Below, in pieces: positions 3,665 to 50,698 of a DNA stretch of 64,000 bases (positions are counted from its first letter, which is position 1; the number at the start of each line of letters is the position of its first letter). Below the pieces are notes generated by a model. It saw nothing but the letters and a program-made list of their open reading frames with translations. It did no database searches and was not told the DNA's origin. This DNA is from an uncultured delta proteobacterium. Lineage in GTDB: Bacteria > Desulfobacterota > Binatia > Binatales > Binataceae. The stretch is from positions 377,411 to 441,410 of the forward strand of contig CAWESZ010000013.1 of NCBI GenBank assembly GCA_963811865.1, in the 5' to 3' direction. Position numbers and translations under genes: made by a program.

Positions 3665-4444
3665 TTATCCGGGTTCCTGGGGTGGCTGATCGTCACTGAT
3701 CCGGCGCTTGCTGTGTTTGAGCCTGAAGCTGTCGCCGTTGAGCTCGAGGATGTGAACGTGGTGGGTGAGGCGGTCGAGCAGCGCTCCGGTCAGGCGCTCG
3801 GAGGCGAACACGCCGGTCCATTCATCGAAGGGCAGATTGCTGGTAACGATGATCGAGCCGCGCTCGTAGCGCTGGCTGAAGACCTCGAACAGCAACTCGG
3901 CGCCGATCGGTGAGAGCGGAACGTAGCCCAGCTCGTCGACGATCAGAAGTTTGTAACCTGCGAACAGCCGTTGCAGGCGCAGCAGACGCTTTTCATCGCG
4001 TGCTTCGTGGAGCTCGTTGACCAGGGCGGCGGCGGTGGTGAAGCCGACCGGAAGACCCTTCTGGCAGGCGGCCAGCCCGAGCCCCAGCGCAATGTGGGTC
4101 TTGCCGGTGCCGCTGTTGCCGAGCGCGATGACATTCTCGCGGCGGGCCACATACTCCGAACGGGCCAGTTCCAGCACCAGGGTCTTGTTGAGCGAGGGGA
4201 TGGCGGTGAAGTCGAAGCTGTCGAGGCTTTTGACCGCCGGGAACCTGGCCTCCTTGATCCGGCGCTCGACGGTCCGCCGTTCCCGCTCGATCATCTCCAG
4301 CTCGGCCAGCCGCAGCAGGTAGCGGGCGTGGTCGACACCTTCGGCGGCGCACTGGCGGGCGAGCTTGTCGTACTCCCGCAGGAAGGTCGGCAGCCGCAGC
4401 GCCTTCAAGTGATGGGCGAGCAGCACCTGCGGGGTATCGCTCAT
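3665..4444 (-). CDS. istB: IS21-family helper ATPase IstB
   Basis: Internal ATG 4444 overlaps the istA stop (ATGA). Walker A GNSGTGKTH, LLIVDELGY, and the typical IstB C-terminus. Confidence 0.95.
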   Translation of the reverse strand: MSDTPQVLLAHHLKALRLPTFLREYDKLARQCAAEGVDHARYLLRLAELEMIERERRTVERRIKEARFPAVKSLDSFDFTAIPSLNKTLVLELARSEYVARRENVIALGNSGTGKTHIALGLGLAACQKGLPVGFTTAAALVNELHEARDEKRLLRLQRLFAGYKLLIVDELGYVPLSPIGAELLFEVFSQRYERGSIIVTSNLPFDEWTGVFASERLTGALLDRLTHHVHILELNGDSFRLKHSKRRISDDQPPQEPG

Positions 4445-5940
4445 GATGCTGCTCCCGCCAGCAGCCTCAGGTAGGCCCGGGCCGAGGTGGTCGCCACCGT
4501 GGCCTGCGGCAGGTAGGGATAGATCTTGAGGTCCAGCCGCGGCGGGCGGCGCTCGATCCGGCACAACACCAGATGCTTGACCGCATCGAAGCCGATCACG
4601 CCACGGGCGATCGCTGTTCTGACCCCGGCCAGCACATCGTCGGGGTGGAACACCTCCATCAAGCGCAGGACCTGGACGAACTCCCGCTTGCCGGGCTTGC
4701 CCATGCGGGCTTCGAGCAGCCGGCGCAGGGTCGCGAACTCTTCGGGCAACTGCCAGACGGCCAGCGGCGCGGCTTGATCCAGTGCGCCGATCTTCCGCTC
4801 CAGCAGCGCCAGATAGTGCAAGGGGTTGAAGACGAAGTCCTCGCGCTCATAGGACCGCGGATGACGAGCGATCTCCTCGGCGCCGCAGGCGATCACCACC
4901 TCGTGGACGTAGCCGCGGACCAGCACTTCGCGGTGGCCGTAGGCGGTCGGCACGGAGTAGTCGTTGCTCCGGTAGCGCACCAGGGACAACGAGCTGACCC
5001 GGGCCACCTTCTTCTCGCAGGCTTCGTAGGGAGTCGCCGGCAGCGCCAGCAAGGCGGCGCGGTCTCGCACCAGCCGCTCGCCGATGGTCTCATCATGACC
5101 ACGCAGCCGGTCGCCCAGCCGGCGCCGACAGTGCTCCAGCAACTGCGCGTTGAGCTCGGCGAAGCTGGTCGCTCGTGGGATTGGCACCATGAAGTTGCGC
5201 CGCGCGTAGCCGACCAACCCTTCGACCTTGCCCTTGTCGTTGCCCTTGCCCGGCCGCCCGAAGCGGTCGGCGAACAGATAGTGCGACTGCAGCTCGCTGA
5301 AGACTCTGGTCCGCAGCCGCCGGCCATCGCCCAGGATGCTCGCCACTGCCAGTTTGGTGTTGTCGTACAGGATCGAGCGCGGTACTCCGCTGAAGAACTC
5401 GAAGCCGGCGTTGTGCCCTTCACAGAAGGCTTCGCTACTCTCCGCCGGATAGGCCTGTACCAGGCAGCCGTCGCTGTGCGGCAAATCCATCGCGAAGAAG
5501 TGGATCTTTCGCTCCACTCCCCCGATCACCGCCCGCGCCTCGCCGAAGTCTACTTGCGCGTGCCCCGGATCGTGCCGCAACGGCACGAACATCTCGCGCT
5601 GCCGCTGCCGATGCTCGTGCACGTAGTCCTTGACGACGGTGATCCCGCCGCTATACCCGTGCTCGTCCCGCAACCGCTCGAAGATCCGCTTCGAGGTATG
5701 CTGCTGTTTGGCCGGCTGTCCCTTATCGTCCGCCAGGATTCGGTCAATGATCCCGATGAACGGATCGAGCTTCGGCCGCGCCGGCGGCTGGCTCCGCCGG
5801 TATCCCGGCGGTACCGAGAACGCCAGCATCTTCGCCACCGTCCGCGGATCGATACCGAATCGCCGCGCCGCCTCCCGCCGGCTCATCCCCTCAACGAAAA
5901 CCGCGCGCCGCACCTGCCCATACAGTTCCACGCCTTTCAT
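4441..5940 (-). CDS. istA: IS21-family transposase IstA
   Basis: 499-aa track ORF with an N-terminal HTH (MSRREAARRFGIDPRTVAKM) and an integrase/DDE core, followed by istB. Confidence 0.95.
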   Translation of the reverse strand: MKGVELYGQVRRAVFVEGMSRREAARRFGIDPRTVAKMLAFSVPPGYRRSQPPARPKLDPFIGIIDRILADDKGQPAKQQHTSKRIFERLRDEHGYSGGITVVKDYVHEHRQRQREMFVPLRHDPGHAQVDFGEARAVIGGVERKIHFFAMDLPHSDGCLVQAYPAESSEAFCEGHNAGFEFFSGVPRSILYDNTKLAVASILGDGRRLRTRVFSELQSHYLFADRFGRPGKGNDKGKVEGLVGYARRNFMVPIPRATSFAELNAQLLEHCRRRLGDRLRGHDETIGERLVRDRAALLALPATPYEACEKKVARVSSLSLVRYRSNDYSVPTAYGHREVLVRGYVHEVVIACGAEEIARHPRSYEREDFVFNPLHYLALLERKIGALDQAAPLAVWQLPEEFATLRRLLEARMGKPGKREFVQVLRLMEVFHPDDVLAGVRTAIARGVIGFDAVKHLVLCRIERRPPRLDLKIYPYLPQATVATTSARAYLRLLAGAAS

Positions 5941-6269
5941 CCCTCCGCCCTCTGCCCATCTTGGCAGATGGCCTGCCGCTGCCGGACTTTTGCTCCGGCG
6001 CGACCGGACTACCCGGCCGCTTCACTGAGGGATTTTCTCTCCGGCGCTCTCACACGGGCGTTTTGCAGAGCGCTACCCCCTTCTTCGCGACATCGCCCAT
6101 TGTCTGGCTCTGAGTTTCGGAAGCGCCGACCCAAACTTCCGGGCCGAACAATTTGCAAGTGCCTGCGGAATGCCGGAAATCGCCCGATGAGGATGCTCAT
6201 CGCCGGGCACTCAAAGGGCTCGTAGCTCCCGGTGTCTGCCGGCTCCCCGCATTCGTGGCTCTCGATGAT

Positions 6270-6704
6270 TTAGTCTTCTGTTTGGTCGTGGGTCGTCATT
6301 GTACCGAGGAGTAGGCGTATTTTTTTGATGACACGTTGAGGGCTTCCGAGCTGGTGCTCCCATATCCTTAGTACCGTCCAGCCGTCGCCGCGAAGAATGC
6401 GATTCACCGTTCGGTCGCGCTTGCGGTTTGCCGCGAGCTTTTTCTCCCAAAACCCGCGGTTGTTTGACGGCTGTGTACCGCACCTCGGGCAGCAGTGCCA
6501 GAAGCACCCGTCTACAAATACGGCAAGTCGCGCAGTCTTGAATGCAAAGTCGGGCCTGCCCTCGACGCGCGCATGACGCCGCCAACCATAGATGTGCGAC
6601 GCGCGAAGCAGCTCCAACAGCGCCAACTCCGTCGCGCGATTGCCGCGTCCTCTGATTCGCGACATCACCTCTGAGCGTTTTTCTTTGGTGAAAACGTCGC
6701 TCAT
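6270..6704 (-). CDS. vsr: very short patch repair endonuclease
   Basis: 144-aa ORF with SRIRGRGNRATELALLELL, RPDFAF, FVDGCFWHCCPRC and WTVLRIWEH, all hallmarks of Vsr. Confidence 0.93.
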   Translation of the reverse strand: MSDVFTKEKRSEVMSRIRGRGNRATELALLELLRASHIYGWRRHARVEGRPDFAFKTARLAVFVDGCFWHCCPRCGTQPSNNRGFWEKKLAANRKRDRTVNRILRGDGWTVLRIWEHQLGSPQRVIKKIRLLLGTMTTHDQTED

Positions 6705-6793
6705 TGCCGCTGCGGCTCCAGCGATAATAGAGGCATGGCGTTTCTGAACGAACGTGGTAACTTGGTCAACCAGATCCGATTCGGGGAGGCCAC

Positions 6794-7749
6794 GTGGCTA
6801 CAGCATTGGACCTTTTTTGCGGTGCGGGAGGCGGCAGCGCGGGAGCCCGCGCGGCGGGCTTCGACGTGATCGCCGCCATCGATATGTGTCCAATTGCGAC
6901 GCAGACGTTTAAAGCAAACTTCCCGAGTAGCCAGGTTTTCACCGAGCGCCTCGAAGGCCTGCATCCGGGTAATTTAGGCCGACGCTTGGGTAAAATCGAT
7001 CTACTGCTCGCCTCCCCAGAATGCACTAATCACACGTGCGCTAGGGGCTCTGCACCGCGCGACGAGCAGAGCCGTGCCACGGCCATGCAAGTAGTCCGAT
7101 ATGCAAGCGCCCTACTGCCGCGCTGGCTCGTACTCGAGAAACGTGATCCACATGCGCCCTTGGTCCCGCTACGCTGAATTGAAGGAAAAAATCCGCCGGT
7201 TGGGGTACAGTGTGACGGAACAGATACTCGACGCGTCCGATTTCGGCGTCGCGCAGACCCGCCGCAGACTTTTCATTGTGGGAGATCGCGAACGCCCACC
7301 GACGGTCGTCACAGAGAAGCGACGCGGTCGGCGTCGGGCAGCGAAATCTATCCTCGATCCGCCCGGCACCTGGGACACCACACCGCTATTTGCACCGACG
7401 AGAGCGCCCGCGACGCTCGAAAGAGCCCGGCGCGCCTTTGCTGCGTTGGGTGATCACGCGACTTTTCTCCTTGTGTATTACGGAACCGACGGGAGCGGCG
7501 GCTGGCAACCTTTGGGGCGCCCTCTTCGCACCATTACCACTATTGATCGTTTCGCGCTGATCCAGCCTTGCCGGAACAATCCCCGGATTCCGAATGCTGC
7601 AGGTACCCGAACTGAAGCGTGCGATGGGGTTCTCCGACAGCTTCGCGCTGCCAACTGGCACCCGCCGCGAGCGCGTCCGTTTGCTTGGTAATGCGGTCTG
7701 TCCTCCCGTCATGGAAGCAGTCGTGAGGGCATTGACCAAGCACGGGTAG
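6794..7749 (+). pseudogene. dcm: DNA (cytosine-5)-methyltransferase, interrupted by two +1 frameshifts
   Basis: Motif I DLFCGAGG and catalytic SPEC in frame 1. LVLENV is only readable after skipping one A of AAA 7139-7141. QTRRRLFIVG (motif VIII) is in frame 2. RMLQVPELKRAMGF...LLGNAVCPPV (motifs IX-X) is in frame 3, after the CCCC run at 7581-7584. Stop TAG at 7747-7749. Confidence 0.85.
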
Positions 7750-8057
7750 CCCCCGGGGATCGTCACTTCGGCTTCTTTTCCCCGGTCTCATTTGGCGGCG
7801 TCTGCAAAGCCTTTTTCTCATGAAACGAGATAATACCGGGTCGGGCACCGTAGCTGTGAAATCTATATGCTAGGTCATTCAGCAACGCTTCGCGAACACG
7901 AAATAGGACGGGGGATTTCTTCGCTTCCCCCCTAGACAATGACACCTGAAACCGCGAGTTGACCACCAGAAGTCGCGTTTTGCCCCCGATGGCGACCGGT
8001 GGACTGATCCACAGGGCCCCGGGGCCGTCCCCTTCGATTTCGATTCAAATGGCATTT

Positions 8058-9111
8058 CTAATCCCAGCAAATAGGGCAGTGGCCCTGGCTGCTGCTGCGC
8101 AAAGTCGCAGGCGGCTTGTATCTGGACGTAGAATCCACCGAAACCGGCCGTCGGTGTCCGCATAGTCCTTGCAAGCGAACTGCTCCGACGCGAGCTCCTT
8201 CGCCTTCGTGCCGAAGCGATTCTCGAATTTCGCTGCGTGCGATGGCGGAAGTCCAATAACCGCACCGCGATCGTGTAGACGAGGTGCCTTCCCCTTCCGC
8301 AATCTGAAGCAGACGATTTAATCTGGCCGCCTCCTCCGCCTTCAGTTCCCTGCGGATGTCTTCGGGCCCGAACGCGCCCCTCCACACCCTCTCGTCGGCA
8401 GGCCGGCCTTCAAGGAAGGCGATGCGGTCCGCCAGAATAGGAAGCAGCGTCCCATTGACAGCTTGGAACCGATCCCTCTCCACGTGGGCTTCCCCAACGG
8501 CCTCAACAGCTAGCCTGCACAGCAGGCGTCCCAGTTCCCGATCGTGCTTCGGATCGGCAACGGCAGTGGTCAGATCAATAACAGCCGACACGGTTTCAGC
8601 GGCTGCATCGAGTACGCGCTCCTCCCAATTGAAAAGCGCCGCTATTTTGAGCCCGCTCGCTGACTATCTTTTCAATGGCGGCCACGAGCTTGCTAACGTT
8701 CCTTACTTTTCCCGCTGAGTCGAGATGTTTCGTCTTATCGAGCGATGCTACCGCGAACGGCTTCCGTACCCCCACGACATGTTTGTCGAGAAACTCTCGC
8801 AGAGCATTTGCCTGGCCCGCGAACCTGGTCCAGAGGACGATAATGTAGGGACCGGTCGGGGCAAGACTTTCCTCGATGAGGCCTCCGATCATTGCGAAGT
8901 GTCTGGCATGATTGCCGTTTCCAGCGCCGCTCTCGTTGAGATGAAGGTCTGCAAAGATGACACGAACTCGCGGACAGCTCTTCAACTCACTCACGTCGCC
9001 AGTAAACAAAATCGGCAGGCAGGCCGCGCCAAACCGGTTCAGGGCATCCGCAAGCCCTCGGAGATCCAGTTCGTTATCGTCGATGATGATGATCCGCGGT
9101 GCGGGGAGCAT
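8058..9111 (-). pseudogene. response-regulator receiver (REC) domain protein with an unrecognised helical output domain; at least 1 frameshift and an uncertain 3' end
   Basis: ATG 9111 directly follows the TAA of the upstream kinase gene. REC residues present: IIIIDDN, VIFADLHL, IIVLWT, VRKPF. The frame is lost in an A4 run (plus-strand TTTT 8645-8648) and continues as IAALFNWEERVLDAAAETV...LLQIAEGEG (track ORF 8058..8591). More coding-like pieces in other frames reach about 7879. Confidence 0.65.
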
Positions 9112-11251
9112 TTATTTACCCTTCCTGAAAACCAAGGCGGCGACCGCTCCATCAAACCCGTCTGGCAAGTCGACCTCCCCGGCATGCGGTAGGACCAGCT
9201 TTCCCCCACTGAGCTCCCATCGCCAAGTTCGCATAATACAGCCCGAGCCCCATCCCAGTGGGCTTGCGTGTAAAGAACGGTCGCACGAGCAGTTCTGGAT
9301 CATCACCTTGAAATCCTGGGCCGGTGTCCGCCACGACCATGGCTGGCCCGAGGTCGAATTCGTCGCTGGCCCCTATGTACAACTTTCGCGGGCTGGAGCC
9401 ATCGTCAGCCGGTTCGTCCGGCCACCTCACCCTCATCCAATACAGCGAGTTATCGATGAGATTGTTGACGGCGCCCAAAACGAGGCTGAACGAAAACTTC
9501 GCCTCGAATCCCGAACCGTTTGTTTCTAGAAGCGGACAGTAGAGCCGTACGCGATGATGGCGAAAGCGCAAAACGTTGAACCGCCGCGCAGCCTCGACGA
9601 GCTTTCGGGCTGAATGCTTCTCCTGTCTGTCGCGACGTAGTAGGACGGAGAAGCCGTCAAGCAGATGCATGAGATCGCGCGCTTGGCGCTCCGTGGCATC
9701 CGGATCCGCTTCTCCACGATCACTTGGTGAAGAGCGCGCACGCCCCGCTCAACCTCATGGAATACGACGGCAAGGTTGAGTCCAGACATTCCCGCGGTTA
9801 AGAGCGTATCCTGCATATCCCGGTAGTCGTGCTCGATTTTCGTTACATACGGCTCGAACGTCTTGAGGATACCTCTGTCGTTCAGAGCCTTCCGAAGATC
9901 CTGGATAGGCTTTCTAATTCCGACCGTGTCGGAGTTGCCCGTGGTTCCGGTTACCCTCCGAATTCGATCCTTATCGATTTGCCTCTCGGACTCGAGCGCC
10001 GCGATGGCGCCCAATACAATGCGACGAAGATTAGCGCACGCAGCGTTCTCGACAAAGCCTTCGCGGTTAGTTTTCTCAACCAGTAGATTAGACCTTTCCA
10101 GTGAGAGATGGACAGCGCCCAGGATGATGTTGCGGCTAATACCACGCGTCGGAGCATTTACGCGTCGCAGGTCCAGTCCCAACCAGTCATCCCCGGCTTC
10201 GCCGTAGTTGTACACGCGAATACCATCCCGATATACACGCACGCCCCCATTTTCATCGAGGTAGTCGGCTAGAAGCTGTACATCCGCCAATCGCCGCAAC
10301 ACCTCCCGATCTCTATCGTACACATAGAATTCTCCCGTAACGGGCCCGATCCCACGTAATGTGCTCCCGTCCGCTACGATCTTTTTCTCCATTCGGTCGT
10401 CGCCGGATGCCGGCGGGAGCTTGAGTCTGTCGCCGCGTTTCCGCACCAACCTTGGCTCGAGCTTGAGGCCGGGCACCTGCCTAAATTCATATTTCCAACC
10501 GAACCCCTTCCGGTCGAGCCGAAATGCAAATTTCCAAATCGCCCTGTCGAGGAATTTCTCGACATCGGGAATGTCGGCAATCCAGTCTTCTTCCCCGGGG
10601 ACTTCCAGCCTCGCGGAAAAACCGCTCGGTTCTCTGAACGGCGAGCAGATGGAGGTTATCTGCTCTGCAGCCGACGAACCTCATTGCGCGACCACTGATT
10701 CTGTCGAAGCTCACTGATCTCCACCACCGTTCCGGTCGTCTTTCCCGTGAATAGCTCGGGTGAACGAACCCGTATGGTGACCGGAGCCTGGGACAAAAAG
10801 GGCCTCGCGATTAATTTGTGCCAGTCGATCTTGACGACGCACTCGTCAGCACCCTTTGCGCGTGTAATTAGGCGGATTCTGTTGCCGAGCTTGTGCACGG
10901 CAAACCGCCCAAGCCCCTTCTCGCCGAGCGGTAATCTCCGATGTTTCTTCGAGCGTGCGAGCGACAGACGCTGCTTCATCCGGAAATCATCGCCGGGCAC
11001 GAGCCATACATTTTCTAGCTGCTCGATGTCATCCCCTCGCCGTCGTCGCGGACAGTGATGGTCGGTTGGCGTTGCCGAAGATCGAGGGTCACAACTGCCT
11101 CATTCGCGTCGGCATCATAAGCATTTTTCACCAACTCGAAGACCGCAAGCCGCGCACTCCCTATCAACTCGTCACCAAGCAACTGAAGCAGCCTGGCCCG
11201 TGGCCGGAACGATCTACGAATTTCACTTTCCACTCTACGGTTCACCTTCAA
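9112..11251 (-). pseudogene. fusion of an N-terminal MORC/Hsp90-like GHKL ATPase module with a C-terminal histidine-kinase core (DHp+CA); needs 4 frame corrections
   Basis: Stitched from track ORFs 11015..11251, 10656..11000, 9526..10476 (frame open from ~10690), 9152..9670 and 9112..9306. N-terminal motifs: ELVKNAYDADA, VRDDGEGM, GEKGLGRF. C-terminal motifs: H-box-like VVFHEVERGVRAL, N-box NNLIDNSLYW, G1 VADTGPGF, G2 TGMGLGLYYA. Frame changes near 11015, 10665, 9705 and 9225. Confidence 0.7.
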
Positions 11252-11699: not shown

Positions 11700-11822
11700 C
11701 GGGGAACCGGCAGCCAAGACGCGGTCGCGAGCGCCAAAAACGCCACGACGGTCATCAGAGCAAATGCGAGCGTGAATCCTCGGGCCGCTGACGCAGCCCT
11801 GGCAACGATAGCGCCTACCAAG
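11700..11822 (-). pseudogene. 3' fragment of an MFS transporter gene, paralogous to 27814..29155
   Basis: VGAIVARAASAARGFTLAFALMTVVAFLALATA aligns with the C-terminus GAIVARAASADGGFTLAFGLMTVAALLALATA of the intact MFS gene. DNA similarity is visible over ~100 nt and is lost at ~11822. Confidence 0.55.
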
Positions 11823-11869
11823 CCGGCGCACGCCCTACCTCACCAGCGCGGCGGACGGCAGGAACTCCG

Positions 11870-12063
11870 GTCCGCTCGTGATCGTCGGACCGGCGAGGCT
11901 CAAAATTTATACGTAGTGCCGACGTTGGAGAATGCCAAATTTCCCACCGGGCCAGTGCCTTTAAGGAAACCTCCGGTGAGAAAGCTGGCCAGATTGACAG
12001 CGATCGTCTTATGCAAATCGAGCGCCCAGCGCAGCTCGAAATTCGGCTGGCTTCCGATATACC
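11870..12063 (-). repeat. displaced copy A of the OMP gene 3' end (last 53 codons plus ~30 nt downstream), in-frame and intact
   Basis: Reads YIGSQPNFELRWALDLHKTIAVNLASFLTGGFLKGTGPVGNLAFSNVGTTYKF* (stop 11900-11902). It aligns with 12921..13113 apart from scattered substitutions and one 1-nt indel. Confidence 0.9.
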
Positions 12064-12138: not shown

Positions 12139-12516
12139 TTATTCGAGGCGCAGGCCGGAGAATCGCCGGAAGTCATCGCGATTCGCGGTCGCGAGGCTGG
12201 CGCCTACTCTGATCGCGGTCGCGGCGATCATGCAGTCCAAAAGCGAGCCCCGGCGCCGTCCCGAATGGTTGAACAGTTCCGCGGCCTGAATCGAATCCTC
12301 CACCACGAAAGGCTCCGGCTCGCCGACCATCGCCGCCGCCAGCGCAAGCTGCCGCTGGTCCAGAGGGCCGCAGAGAAACTCGGCCCATCCGATGGCGCTC
12401 ATGCCGAGCTTGACGCCATCCGCCATCCAGCGGCGCAACTGCTTGTCTTCGCCGGAATTCGCCTTCAGCGCCCCGATCAGAAAACTCGTATCGAGATGAA
12501 CTATCGCTTGCGCCAT
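12139..12516 (-). CDS. vapC: PIN-domain toxin (VapC type)
   Basis: Internal ATG of ORF 12139..12567. IVHLDTSFLI (N-terminal Asp), GWAEFL, DCMIAATA and TANRDDF give the conserved acidic residues of PIN. Confidence 0.85.
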   Translation of the reverse strand: MAQAIVHLDTSFLIGALKANSGEDKQLRRWMADGVKLGMSAIGWAEFLCGPLDQRQLALAAAMVGEPEPFVVEDSIQAAELFNHSGRRRGSLLDCMIAATAIRVGASLATANRDDFRRFSGLRLE

Positions 12517-12785
12517 TCGTGACGAGCCAACGTCCTTGCGCGCTCGATGCGGACCTTGCGCGACCACTCGTCAGTCCGTTGTCTGGTGAGCTTGACGCTC
12601 TTCTGCAATTCGTCCAACGCTTGCAAGGGGGACGGCGCCGGGCCTAGCTGATCGCGGGCGACTACGTCAATCGCGCGGCGCAAAACTTCCGATTTCGAGA
12701 CCTTCCACCGGGCGGCCACCCGGTCGAGTTTGCGGATCGTTTCCACATCCAGAGCGTAGGTCGATTTGATCGAGGTTCGGGCCAT
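12501..12785 (-). CDS. vapB: ribbon-helix-helix antitoxin (VapB type)
   Basis: ATG 12785. MARTSIKSTYALDVETIRKLDRVAARWKVSKSEVLRRAI is an RHH pattern. Overlaps the vapC start by 16 nt. Confidence 0.8.
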   Translation of the reverse strand: MARTSIKSTYALDVETIRKLDRVAARWKVSKSEVLRRAIDVVARDQLGPAPSPLQALDELQKSVKLTRQRTDEWSRKVRIERARTLARHEWRKR

Positions 12786-12920
12786 ACCAGAGCCATTATA
12801 TGGCCATACCATGAGCAGATTCCACCGGACGCGAAGATGCCGGCCGCCGCCGGCCCCTGATCGCCCGACCGGTGTCAGTATCGCATCCAAGTAGGAGTTG
12901 ACCGAACGAAAGTGGCACAG

Positions 12921-13113
12921 GTCCGCTCCTGATCGGCCAACCGGCGGGGTTCAAAATTTATACGTAACGCCGACGTTGGAGAATGCCACATTTCCCGCCG
13001 GGCCCGTGTCCTTAAGGAAACCTCCGGTGAGAAAGCCGGCCAGATTATTGCGATCGTCGTATGCAAATCGAGCGCCCAGCGCAGCTCGAAATTCGGCTGG
13101 CTTCCGATATACC
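12921..13113 (-). repeat. copy B of the OMP gene 3' end, still attached to the gene but one nucleotide shorter than copy A
   Basis: 163 nt from stop to boundary versus 164 nt in copy A (AGATTATTGCGATCG versus AGATTGACAGCGATCG). The terminal beta-strand AGFLTGGFLKDTGPAGNVAFSNVGVTYKF* is therefore out of frame with the gene body. Confidence 0.9.
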
Positions 13114-14429
13114 TCGCTCTGCTGCCATCGCTGGGGCGGATTAGCGCACCGCCGATTTGGTACACGCCGTCGTCAAGGCTCTGGCGCCAGAACCAGCCCC
13201 AATCGAAAGCACAGGTGACGTTCGGCAGGAGGGCGAACATCAGCACCGGATGCACATCAAACAAATTGTATGGTCCGAACATGGTCAGCTTCGGGCCGAA
13301 ATACGCTCCGCGCGGGAACAAGGGATTGAATGTGTTCAGCGTGCCGCCGTTGGGATGGTCCCCGCCGCTGGCGATATCCGCGCGCAGGGCGAGCCGTGGC
13401 GCGAAGCGCACCGGCAACGTGTAGCCCGTTTCGGTCGCGACCGTCCACGCGTTGATGTAGTTATTCCCGAACGTGCCGAGCTGATAAACCAGCTCCCAAT
13501 TGTAGTCCAAGCCGGCCTCGAATGGTGCCCCAGCCGGATGATTGAACAATCGCGTGCCGATACTGTGGCGAATCTCGCGCCCACTGCCTTGCTGATAGGT
13601 CGCGCGCGTCGTATCGACTCCGAGGTAATAGAGGTCCGCCTGCCCGTTCTGATCGATCAGACGCAGCGGCACCGTGCCATAAGCTCCCCAGAACGTCTGT
13701 TGCGAGGTCGGACGATCGTCGAACGTTCCGGTGTTCTGTTCGGTCGGCTTGACGCCGAAGACTTCAAGCCGCAGCGTTTCCGTTTTAGCGATAACTCTCG
13801 CGCCGTAAAAGCTGGACTTCACATTCACGCCTTCGTTGTTGTCCACGAGCCTGCCGGTTCCATAGACCAGCTCTTGCTCGCCGAGCCGCACGGTGACCGA
13901 GCGCTGGTCGTCGAGTCCGCTGCTTAGATCGATAAAGGCTTCGTGGAAGTCGCCCTGGTCCTCGTCGATCCCCGGGCGCGGCCCGCCGTTGTTGCCCATC
14001 TCCTTTTCGTACTGAAATGAAGCAAACAGGCGCACGTGCGGACCCGGCGGTCAGACTTGCTTCCGGGATGACGCGTTGCAGCCAGTAGCCGCTGATAGTT
14101 TGCGGCCCCGCGCCCCACATCGCATTCTGGAACCATTCATATTCGGTACGGTTTTCCAGGCCGAGGGTCAGATAAAAGTTCCCGGCCTGGTCGAGCGGCA
14201 CATACTTGAGCGGATCCCACAAGTCCGTGCGGTTCGCAGGATCCTTAAGAAAACTGAAATTCTCGTCGGCTTGATCGACCGGTGTCAGCGGCGGCCGAGC
14301 GGGATTGGACGGTGGTCCCGGCGGCATCGGCTGAGGAGTCTGGGCCAACGTCCGACCAGACGACATCAGTACTATGACGAGCGCGGAAACACTCGATGCG
14401 ACCAGTTTCCGGCGTGGGCGGCGCATCAT
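12951..14429 (-). pseudogene. alginate-export (AlgE-like) family outer-membrane beta-barrel protein, two apparent frameshifts
   Basis: Signal peptide MMRRPRRKLVASSVSALVIVLMSSGRTLA. DLWDPLKYVPLDQAGNFYLTLGLENRTEYEWF is typical of the family. Frame break near 14050 (track ORFs 13785..14429 and 12875..14035) and again near 13045, just before the C-terminal ...YKF. Confidence 0.75.

Positions 14430-47392: not shown

Positions 47393-50698
<3,306 letters not shown>

Follow-up and report, generated by a model that had tools for sequence, protein, structure and literature searches.

A methylase-linked kinase and receiver pair with a candidate toxin output in a contig of an uncultured Binataceae bacterium

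The closest described system to the locus analysed here is found in PMC8011034 (Bellieny-Rabelo, Pretorius & Moleleki 2021), an in silico study starting from a Pectobacterium locus. It describes proteins with HATPase_c_3, HEF_HK and HATPase_c domains, which are adjacent to 'Response_reg_2' proteins in 91.6% of 644 regions. The partners carry no other domain, C5-methylases and Vsr are enriched, and the system is related to paraMORCs. A regulatory role was proposed, and the C-terminal region of the partner was not analysed there. The locus considered here lies in a stretch of 64,000 nt (hereafter the window; contig CAWESZ010000013.1, positions 377,411-441,410 of the forward strand, assembly GCA_963811865.1) from an uncultured delta proteobacterium of the Binataceae. 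It consists of four genes, encoding a C5 cytosine methyltransferase (Dcm), a very-short-patch repair endonuclease (Vsr), a histidine-kinase-like (HK-like) protein and a response-regulator-like (RR-like) protein.

For the enzyme families to which Dcm and Vsr belong it is established that the methylase marks host DNA and that Vsr is the repair enzyme for T:G mismatches, which arise by deamination of 5-methylcytosine. Signalling from a cytoplasmic kinase to a receiver fused to a cell-harming effector is known in defence from Detocs, which consists of the kinase DtcA, the buffer receiver DtcB and the receiver-effector DtcC.

The locus is a frameshifted copy of a widespread cassette of four genes (Dcm, Vsr, HK-like and RR-like) that moves horizontally, and in our judgement there is an even chance that this cassette acts as a methylation-linked, phosphorylation-triggered toxin defence. 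A sequence-only reading of the window had proposed a phosphorelay-based defence function for the HK/RR pair, and we infer the same from the conserved features of the two proteins. The most informative result is that the partner of the kinase is exchanged for known toxin modules in sister loci, and a toxin-type output is the new lead of this analysis.

The HK-like and RR-like proteins

The HK-like gene occupies positions 9112..11251 on the minus strand, and is represented by five open reading frames (ORFs; 11251-11015, 11000-10656, 10476-9526, 9670-9152 and 9306-9112). These had been stitched together as one protein of about 710 aa, and comparison with homologues bears this out: the stitched pieces, from three frames, give 716 aa, which align to more than 100 intact proteins of about 712 aa with 97-100% coverage, 66-74% identity and E=0. 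The family is large, with at least 4,943 proteins at E<=0.001 among the candidates examined.

The N-terminal module (10650..11190, minus strand) has the Bergerat fold motifs ELVKNAYDADA, DDGEGM and GEKGLGRF. It matches HATPase_c_3 (PF13589) at 4.3e-09 on the first window piece and at 1.2e-17 on P0008, an intact homologue used for the Pfam domain calls. Residues 19-197 match the NCBIfam BbrUII/HgiDII restriction-enzyme family at 9.4e-23, and the only PADLOC match, to the type II restriction enzyme model REase_II (6.5e-8), also falls on this head. E35/N39/D42, DxGxG and GEKGLGRF are invariant in an alignment of 36 family members that includes plasmid proteins at 51-58% identity. By homology, the module is a GHKL ATPase of the type found in paraMORCs and restriction-modification (RM) enzymes, and neither a kinase CA domain nor an ordinary sensor, as the sequence-only reading had recognised. 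It is followed by a middle region of about 280 aa, which has no Pfam match. This region is highly conserved, and a long stretch of it is invariant in the 36-member alignment.

The H-box of the DHp helix (GMSGLNLAVVFHEVERGV) lies at 9730..9790 on the minus strand, with the codon of the putative phospho-acceptor histidine at 9759-9757; H497 and E498 are invariant in the 36 members. The H-box has no HisKA-type and no PF19191 match in Pfam, either in the window pieces or in the intact homologue. Two ordinary hybrid kinases in the window served as a control, and both HisKA (1e-19 to 1e-23) and Response_reg (1e-45 to 1e-48) are recognised in them. Because kinases of the same window are so strongly recognised, the divergence of the H-box is real.

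The kinase CA domain (9120..9480, minus strand) carries the N-box NNLIDNSLYW, the G1 box VADTGPGF and the G2 box GMGLGLYYA, all of them quoted in the sequence-only reading and all invariant. It matches HATPase_c (PF02518) at 1.1e-4 on the window piece and at 2.2e-15 on the intact homologue. When the family profile was compared with solved structures, it matched the CA domain of FixL at 9e-8 and the DHp and CA domains of LvrB at 1.5e-6 (positions 429-687). In the 36-member alignment N596, D599, N600, D641, G643, G645 and G665-G669 (GMGLG) are invariant. On these homologies the C-terminus is a true and complete kinase core. By profile, a canonical two-component system, in the sense of a HisKA-type DHp with Response_reg and a recognised output, was not found.

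The TAA of the kinase gene directly abuts the ATG of the RR-like gene (9114-9109), an arrangement that implies translational coupling and that is correctly described in the sequence-only reading. In one database protein of 900 aa (P0046) the reading continues from a kinase-like gene into a receiver-like one, as a result of either a natural fusion or an artefact of gene calling or frameshifting.

The RR-like gene had been thought to end at 8058. It runs further, to 7763 (7763..9111, minus strand), and encodes 449 aa when intact. The intact protein (P0135) is encoded on L010, a metagenomic contig that is 99% identical to window positions 6200-9299. An AlphaFold model based on 116 RR-like homologues (pLDDT 88) has three parts: a (βα)5 domain, a five-helix bundle (residues 154-270) and a β-rich domain of about 160 aa (residues 271-425).

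The first of these, the REC domain (8650..9111, minus strand), is matched by Foldseek to receiver domains in the PDB (FixJ, StyR, PmrA, NtrX and PhoB) at probability 1.0. Its acid pocket is formed by D11 and D12, the predicted phospho-acceptor is D55, and T95 and K126 complete the set. D11, D55, T95 and K126 are invariant in the same 116 sequences, and D12 is present in 115 of them. The canonical receiver residues listed in the sequence-only reading thus stand with one correction, namely that the conserved lysine of β5 is K126, in the sequence SLDK (116/116), and not K117 of VRKPF (94/116). Sequence profiles do not recognise the domain: there is no PF00072 or PF19192 match in the window pieces or in close homologues, and PF00072 gives one match, at E=0.07, over 58 RR-like proteins. 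The assignment as a receiver therefore rests on the predicted structure and on the invariant D11/D12/D55/T95/K126.

The region beyond the receiver had been described as helical, which holds for the helical bundle; the model then adds the β-rich domain, at 7790..8300 on the minus strand, as the candidate effector. Modelling of the C-terminal half alone retains this domain, and its pLDDT is 88-95 in both models. Its invariant residues are W326, Q330, Q332, C335-D336, Q339, R405, R407, H419 and R424-P425-G426. In a Foldseek search of the PDB, toxins of the CcdB/MazF/Kid/ToxN type make up 13 of the 15 best matches. The individual matches are weak (E 0.04-0.4, probability 0.6-0.94, TM 0.5-0.58), and the modelled domain may thus be said to resemble CcdB and MazF weakly but consistently.

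Searches of the domain against PDB sequences and Pfam found no sequence relative. When 1.84 billion representatives were searched exhaustively with a profile, it was found in only 464 clusters, essentially all at residues of about 265-435 in REC-fused proteins of about 430-450 aa. Shorter matches look like fragments, and a standalone form of the domain was accordingly discarded. A reading of the C-terminus as a PD-(D/E)xK or HNH nuclease was also rejected, as it has no structural support from Foldseek against the PDB. No Pfam domain was detected in the RR-like protein, and neither Pfam nor Foldseek finds a DNA-binding output in it, in agreement with what the sequence-only reading had noticed. 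As modelled, the partner has a receiver fold with an output that is not DNA-binding.

Linked genes and exchanged partners

In the window the RR-like gene is convergent with dcm (6733..7749, plus strand), with a gap of 13 bp between dcm and the RR-like stop. The intact copy of dcm on L010 matches PF00145 at 6e-37. Divergent from dcm is vsr (6270..6704, minus strand), which is intact and matches PF03852 at 1.2e-18.

The frequency of this arrangement was assessed in 185,579 species-representative genomes, one per species, which yielded 432 loci. The best 80 were analysed by profile searches of six-frame ORFs around them; 77 have enough sequence to judge the adjacency of the receiver, and 59 have full flanks for methylase and Vsr. 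A receiver-like gene is adjacent in 74 of the 77, and in most it starts 0-9 bp downstream of the kinase stop. A C5-methylase is present within 3 kb in 50 of the 59 loci and Vsr in 45, with both in 44, and the convergent layout of the window is seen in 30. A separately encoded nuclease, EcoRII-C, is found at a Rhizobium gallicum plasmid locus, and most loci have no separate restriction nuclease.

The context is overwhelmingly that of RM and defence and not of housekeeping, and the HK/RR pair occupies the slot of the restriction enzyme beside Dcm and Vsr. The counts agree with the earlier suggestion of a conflict module as opposed to a housekeeping pair. That suggestion had named three observations that would speak against it, namely an ordinary sensor at the N-terminus, a housekeeping context and a DNA-binding output, and none of them was found.

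The best 80 loci, at 51-77% identity, come from Acidobacteriota, Proteobacteria, Spirochaetia, Chloroflexota, Gemmatimonadota, Nitrospinota, Chlorobi, Myxococcota, Binatia and others. The kinase occurs in more than 10 phyla at about 50-77% identity, and also on plasmids and predicted prophages. Such a wide spread at high identity indicates lateral transfer. All four genes are kept together on plasmids of Burkholderia glumae and of Rhizobium/Agrobacterium, where the identity of the receiver is only 30-34%. On predicted viral contigs from IMG/VR, kinase, receiver and methylase occur together in 10 of 11 full-length relatives, with kinase identity down to 35%. Some copies are on conjugative plasmids and adjoin transposition genes (TniB/TniQ, IS21), and many are in chromosomal defence islands.

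While the partner changes, the kinase keeps about 70% identity. Of the 80 loci, 63 have a partner of the window type. In 4-5 loci the receiver is a protein of 194 aa with a short tail, followed directly by a PIN toxin (PF01850; 6.6e-15, 3.1e-13). In another four, the receiver is fused to an Xre_MbcA_ParS_C antitoxin domain (PF09722; 3.2e-5, 1.1e-3), and a RES toxin follows (PF08808; 1.8e-12, 2.4e-12). That a receiver is joined to the antitoxin part of two toxin-antitoxin pairs which are unrelated to each other argues that the signal of the kinase serves to release a toxin. Since the same kinase is paired in sister loci with a receiver-antitoxin and a PIN or RES toxin, the output of the cassette is probably toxin control. 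If this is extended to the common form, its C-terminus of helices and barrel would be an effector of this kind that is built into the protein.

Two more distant relatives of the kinase, on plasmids of Enterobacter mori (L093, 6977-10199) and Hymenobacter (L094, 5637-10771), are also double-GHKL kinases, at 24-27% identity, and have other partners. One of these is a 357-aa protein whose N-terminus matches canonical Response_reg (2.6e-6). At the other locus an N6-methylase gene lies upstream, and the genes downstream encode a protein of 227 aa and an MBL-fold hydrolase.

The copy in the window

The genes in the window are not intact. Over 3.1 kb, comparison with L010 gives 10 indel events and 13 substitutions. 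The tail of the kinase gene has +1 at 9218 (an added G), and three further frameshifts, at about 11030, 10660 and 9710, were placed by protein alignment to within about ±15 bp. A single frame correction had been thought sufficient for the RR-like gene. It requires four (+1 at 8648, +1 at 8275, +1 at 8128 and -1 at 8024), and in addition 3 nt are lost in frame at 8549-8544, a change scored as two adjacent events. The dcm gene, cited in the sequence-only reading as a neighbour, is itself broken by three indels (-1 at 6782, +1 at 7141 and +1 at 7589). In total there are about 11 frameshifting indels across the three genes.

The suspicion that this copy is dead or mis-assembled was well founded, and we consider it either dead or locally mis-polished. 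We give even weight to the possibility that these are consensus errors in a low-coverage, strain-variable island of a long-read assembly, with the real genes intact; the alternative is that they are genuine pseudogenes. The ratio of indels to substitutions is close to 1:1 against a 99%-identical intact contig, which leans toward a poor consensus. Seven of the ten indel events are changes of homopolymer length, and those at 8275, 8128, 7589 and 6782 sit in short palindromes or methylation-type motifs (CTAG to CTACA or CTACG, twice; GGATCC to GGAATCC; CCGG to CCG). The latter could be base-calling errors linked to the motif or to its methylation.

Uniform sequencing error is ruled out as the cause, as ORFs of 3.3-3.5 kb elsewhere in the window are intact. 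Long genes there (ORFs of 1176, 1101, 838, 629 and 532 aa) have full-length Pfam matches, and so the damage is local and any error rate cannot have been uniform. Damage to all three functional cassette genes and to a nearby porin leans the other way, toward a decaying island beside IS21. No intact near-identical kinase gene was recovered by exact-pattern scans of metagenomes. The vsr gene, intact in the window, has a premature stop (TCG to TAG) on L010 at about 2700, corresponding to about 6600 in the window.

The surroundings of the cassette agree in part with the earlier description. The GC content is modestly lower than in the flanks (0.565-0.59 versus 0.60-0.68), as had been stated. The tail-to-tail dcm, vsr and IS21 are indeed neighbours, the last (3665-5940; istB 3665-4564, istA 4441-5940) adjoining vsr. 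The helicase listed with them is not: the SNF2 helicase (47393-50698, minus strand; DUF3670, SNF2 and Helicase_C in Pfam) is 36 kb away and has no PLD domain in Pfam.

On the other side, 0.9 kb upstream of the HK-like gene, there is a vapBC-type pair on the minus strand (12139-12890), with a PIN toxin at 12139-12567 (PF01850, 9e-14) and an overlapping RHH antitoxin at 12501-12890. Beyond it is the porin, of Alginate_exp type, present as two overlapping, frameshifted ORFs (12875-14429, minus strand). A repeat of about 45 codons ('WPAFSPEVSL..WHSPTSALRINFEPRR') occurs at 11815-11960 and 12880-13000, on both sides of the vapBC pair, and the pair looks as if it had been inserted into the 3' end of the porin gene.

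Proposed function and comparison with described systems

On the basis of these observations we suggest the following sequence of events for an intact cassette. Dcm would protect self DNA, and Vsr would limit the mutational cost of 5-methylcytosine. The GHKL module, which stands where ordinary kinases carry a ligand sensor, would be an ATP-driven sensor of DNA state, because it is homologous to the ATPase heads of restriction enzymes of the BbrUII/HgiDII type; unmethylated sites and invading DNA are candidates for what it senses. After detection of unmodified or invading DNA, the core of the kinase would autophosphorylate on H497 and pass the phosphate to D55 of the RR-like protein, as every catalytic residue is conserved on both sides. 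The phosphorylated receiver would then free the C-terminal effector (the helical bundle and the CcdB/MazF-like domain), leading to arrest, death or attack on nucleic acids. This last step is suggested by the weak fold match and, more strongly, by the PIN and RES sister loci.

Several points weigh against this toxin-defence proposal. Phosphotransfer is supported by conserved residues only. The match to CcdB and MazF is below significance, with a best E of 0.04, and hhalign of the domain profile against MazF and CcdB sequences gave nothing. No PADLOC model matches the RR-like protein, and literature searches found no experimental work on any member of the family. Because of its approximately 11 single-base frameshifts, the copy in the window makes none of the kinase, receiver and Dcm proteins as written. 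Finally, in 8 of the 59 loci a C5-methylase is absent from the surrounding 10 kb, so that methylation may not be obligatory, and these loci may be methylation-independent versions. Among the eight (L026, L036, L040, L053, L060, L062, L063 and L064) are PIN and RES variants, and also three loci from Spirochaetia whose partners are full-length.

Among the alternatives, the one that survives best is a restriction enzyme dependent on ATP, of the MORC/paraMORC kind, in which looping or clamping of DNA would fall to the GHKL head, the nuclease would be either the Vsr-family protein or the RR-like protein's C-terminal domain, and kinase and receiver would mainly provide a switch for assembly or allostery, as opposed to a true phosphorelay by which a toxin is released. 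The homology of the N-terminal module to the BbrUII/HgiDII heads and its REase_II match in PADLOC fit this, as do the ties of paraMORCs to Vsr-superfamily nucleases and Dcm in RM operons (Iyer et al., 2008; PMC2292703), and the invariant polar residues D336, Q330/Q332, R405/R407 and H419 could form an active site. We nevertheless consider it unlikely. The catalytic residues of kinase and receiver are invariant across phyla, which argues that phosphoryl chemistry is used; Foldseek finds no PD-(D/E)xK, HNH or other nuclease fold for the C-terminal domain; the PIN and RES variants point to toxins directed at the cell; and Vsr is missing in about a quarter of the loci.

Alternatively, the cassette could be primarily an addiction (post-segregational killing) module of a mobile element, in which loss of the methylase triggers the toxin arm and phage defence is incidental. 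Classical RM systems show both addiction and defence behaviours. Effectors of toxin-antitoxin type, carriage on conjugative plasmids, adjacent transposition genes and a patchy distribution resembling horizontal transfer would all be expected, although the sequence data do not separate this from toxin defence, and the many copies in chromosomal defence islands speak against it; we regard it as quite unlikely. Very unlikely, in our view, is a two-component system that regulates the neighbouring RM system, with the RR-like protein acting on transcription or on the methylase and not as an effector: this was the speculation of the authors of PMC8011034 and suits the tight Dcm/Vsr linkage and the separate nuclease at some loci, such as EcoRII-C, but Pfam and fold searches find no DNA-binding or regulatory output in the RR-like protein, a separate restriction nuclease that could be regulated is absent from most loci, and the alternative partners are toxin-antitoxin modules.

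Returning to toxin defence, a bolder form of the proposal is possible, and we advance it tentatively, as something short of likely. The MORC-like ATPase may read cytosine methylation, report by His-Asp phosphotransfer and unleash interchangeable toxins (CcdB/MazF-like, PIN or RES). The cassette would then be an RM system in which a two-component switch for abortive infection takes the place of a nuclease as the R arm, and a new form of self/non-self immunity. Should the toxin-defence mechanism set out above be correct, the cassette would link RM, two-component signalling and toxin-antitoxin modules, which are usually treated apart. Eukaryotic MORC-type GHKL ATPases act on methylated chromatin, and the cassette would offer a bacterial model for the way in which such ATPases link the state of DNA to signalling further down. 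Being large, highly conserved, mobile and absent from PADLOC, the family is a ready candidate for testing as a defence system. For this window the message is smaller, given that the copy is broken or mis-polished and that the domain combination is already in the literature.

The sequence-only reading had seen the domain combination as without precedent, but the architecture and its methylase/Vsr linkage are those of the HEF_HK/Response_reg_2 system of PMC8011034. The soluble 'group 1' layout of HATPase_c_3, DHp and HATPase_c is the same (PF13589 and PF02518 on the intact homologue), as are the DHp histidine and acidic residue upstream of the CA domain (here H497-E498), the adjacent divergent receiver partner with no other known domain, and the linkage to C5-methylase and Vsr; the taxa overlap (Rhizobium, Agrobacterium, Chlorobium-type).

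The profiles tell a different story. PF19191 (HEF_HK) and PF19192 (Response_reg_2) gave no match at E<=1, in searches run without a positive control, to the window pieces, to homologues, or to plasmid and IMG/VR relatives down to 24-35% identity. Likewise PF19192 gave none at E<=10 over 58 RR-like proteins, again without a positive control. A blastn search against E. coli genomes, meant as a bridge, found no match. Either the clade is outside the reach of these models or it is a sister subfamily. Judged by architecture, residues, context and overlapping taxa, if not by profile, the window cassette is the same system.

With the paraMORC/MORC ATPases (PMC2292703) and BbrUII/HgiDII the HK-like protein shares its N-terminal GHKL module, with intact ATP-binding motifs, in an RM neighbourhood. 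ParaMORCs are likewise encoded beside Dcm and Vsr-superfamily nucleases, and are laterally spread. The paraMORCs described so far terminate in S5 domains together with extensions that are nuclease, TIR or of unknown type, and they act in concert with helicases or nucleases. In the HK-like protein a full histidine-kinase core forms the C-terminal extension, and a receiver protein is its partner.

MADS was considered as a precedent and set aside, as 'histidine kinase' in that system refers to no more than a marker gene at its flank. With Detocs the cassette shares only the logic of a kinase signalling to a receiver-effector, and no component of the PADLOC Detocs models matches the cassette proteins. 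It differs from Detocs in having a GHKL ATPase as sensor, in its mere two signalling genes per locus, with no third gene for a buffer receiver, and in its coupling to DNA methylation. In place of a nucleosidase, its putative effector is a domain resembling CcdB/MazF, or else a toxin-antitoxin pair of PIN or RES type.

The sister loci carry toxins of the VapBC (PIN) and MbcTA/ParST (RES with Xre/MbcA/ParS) kinds, with the antitoxin part fused to the receiver. In contrast to those systems, the antitoxin appears from the sequences to be replaced by, or fused to, a phospho-receiver under a dedicated kinase. The window-type C-terminal domain has a predicted fold that weakly resembles that of CcdB and MazF, sequence comparison with them found no similarity, and it is placed in the same polypeptide as the receiver.

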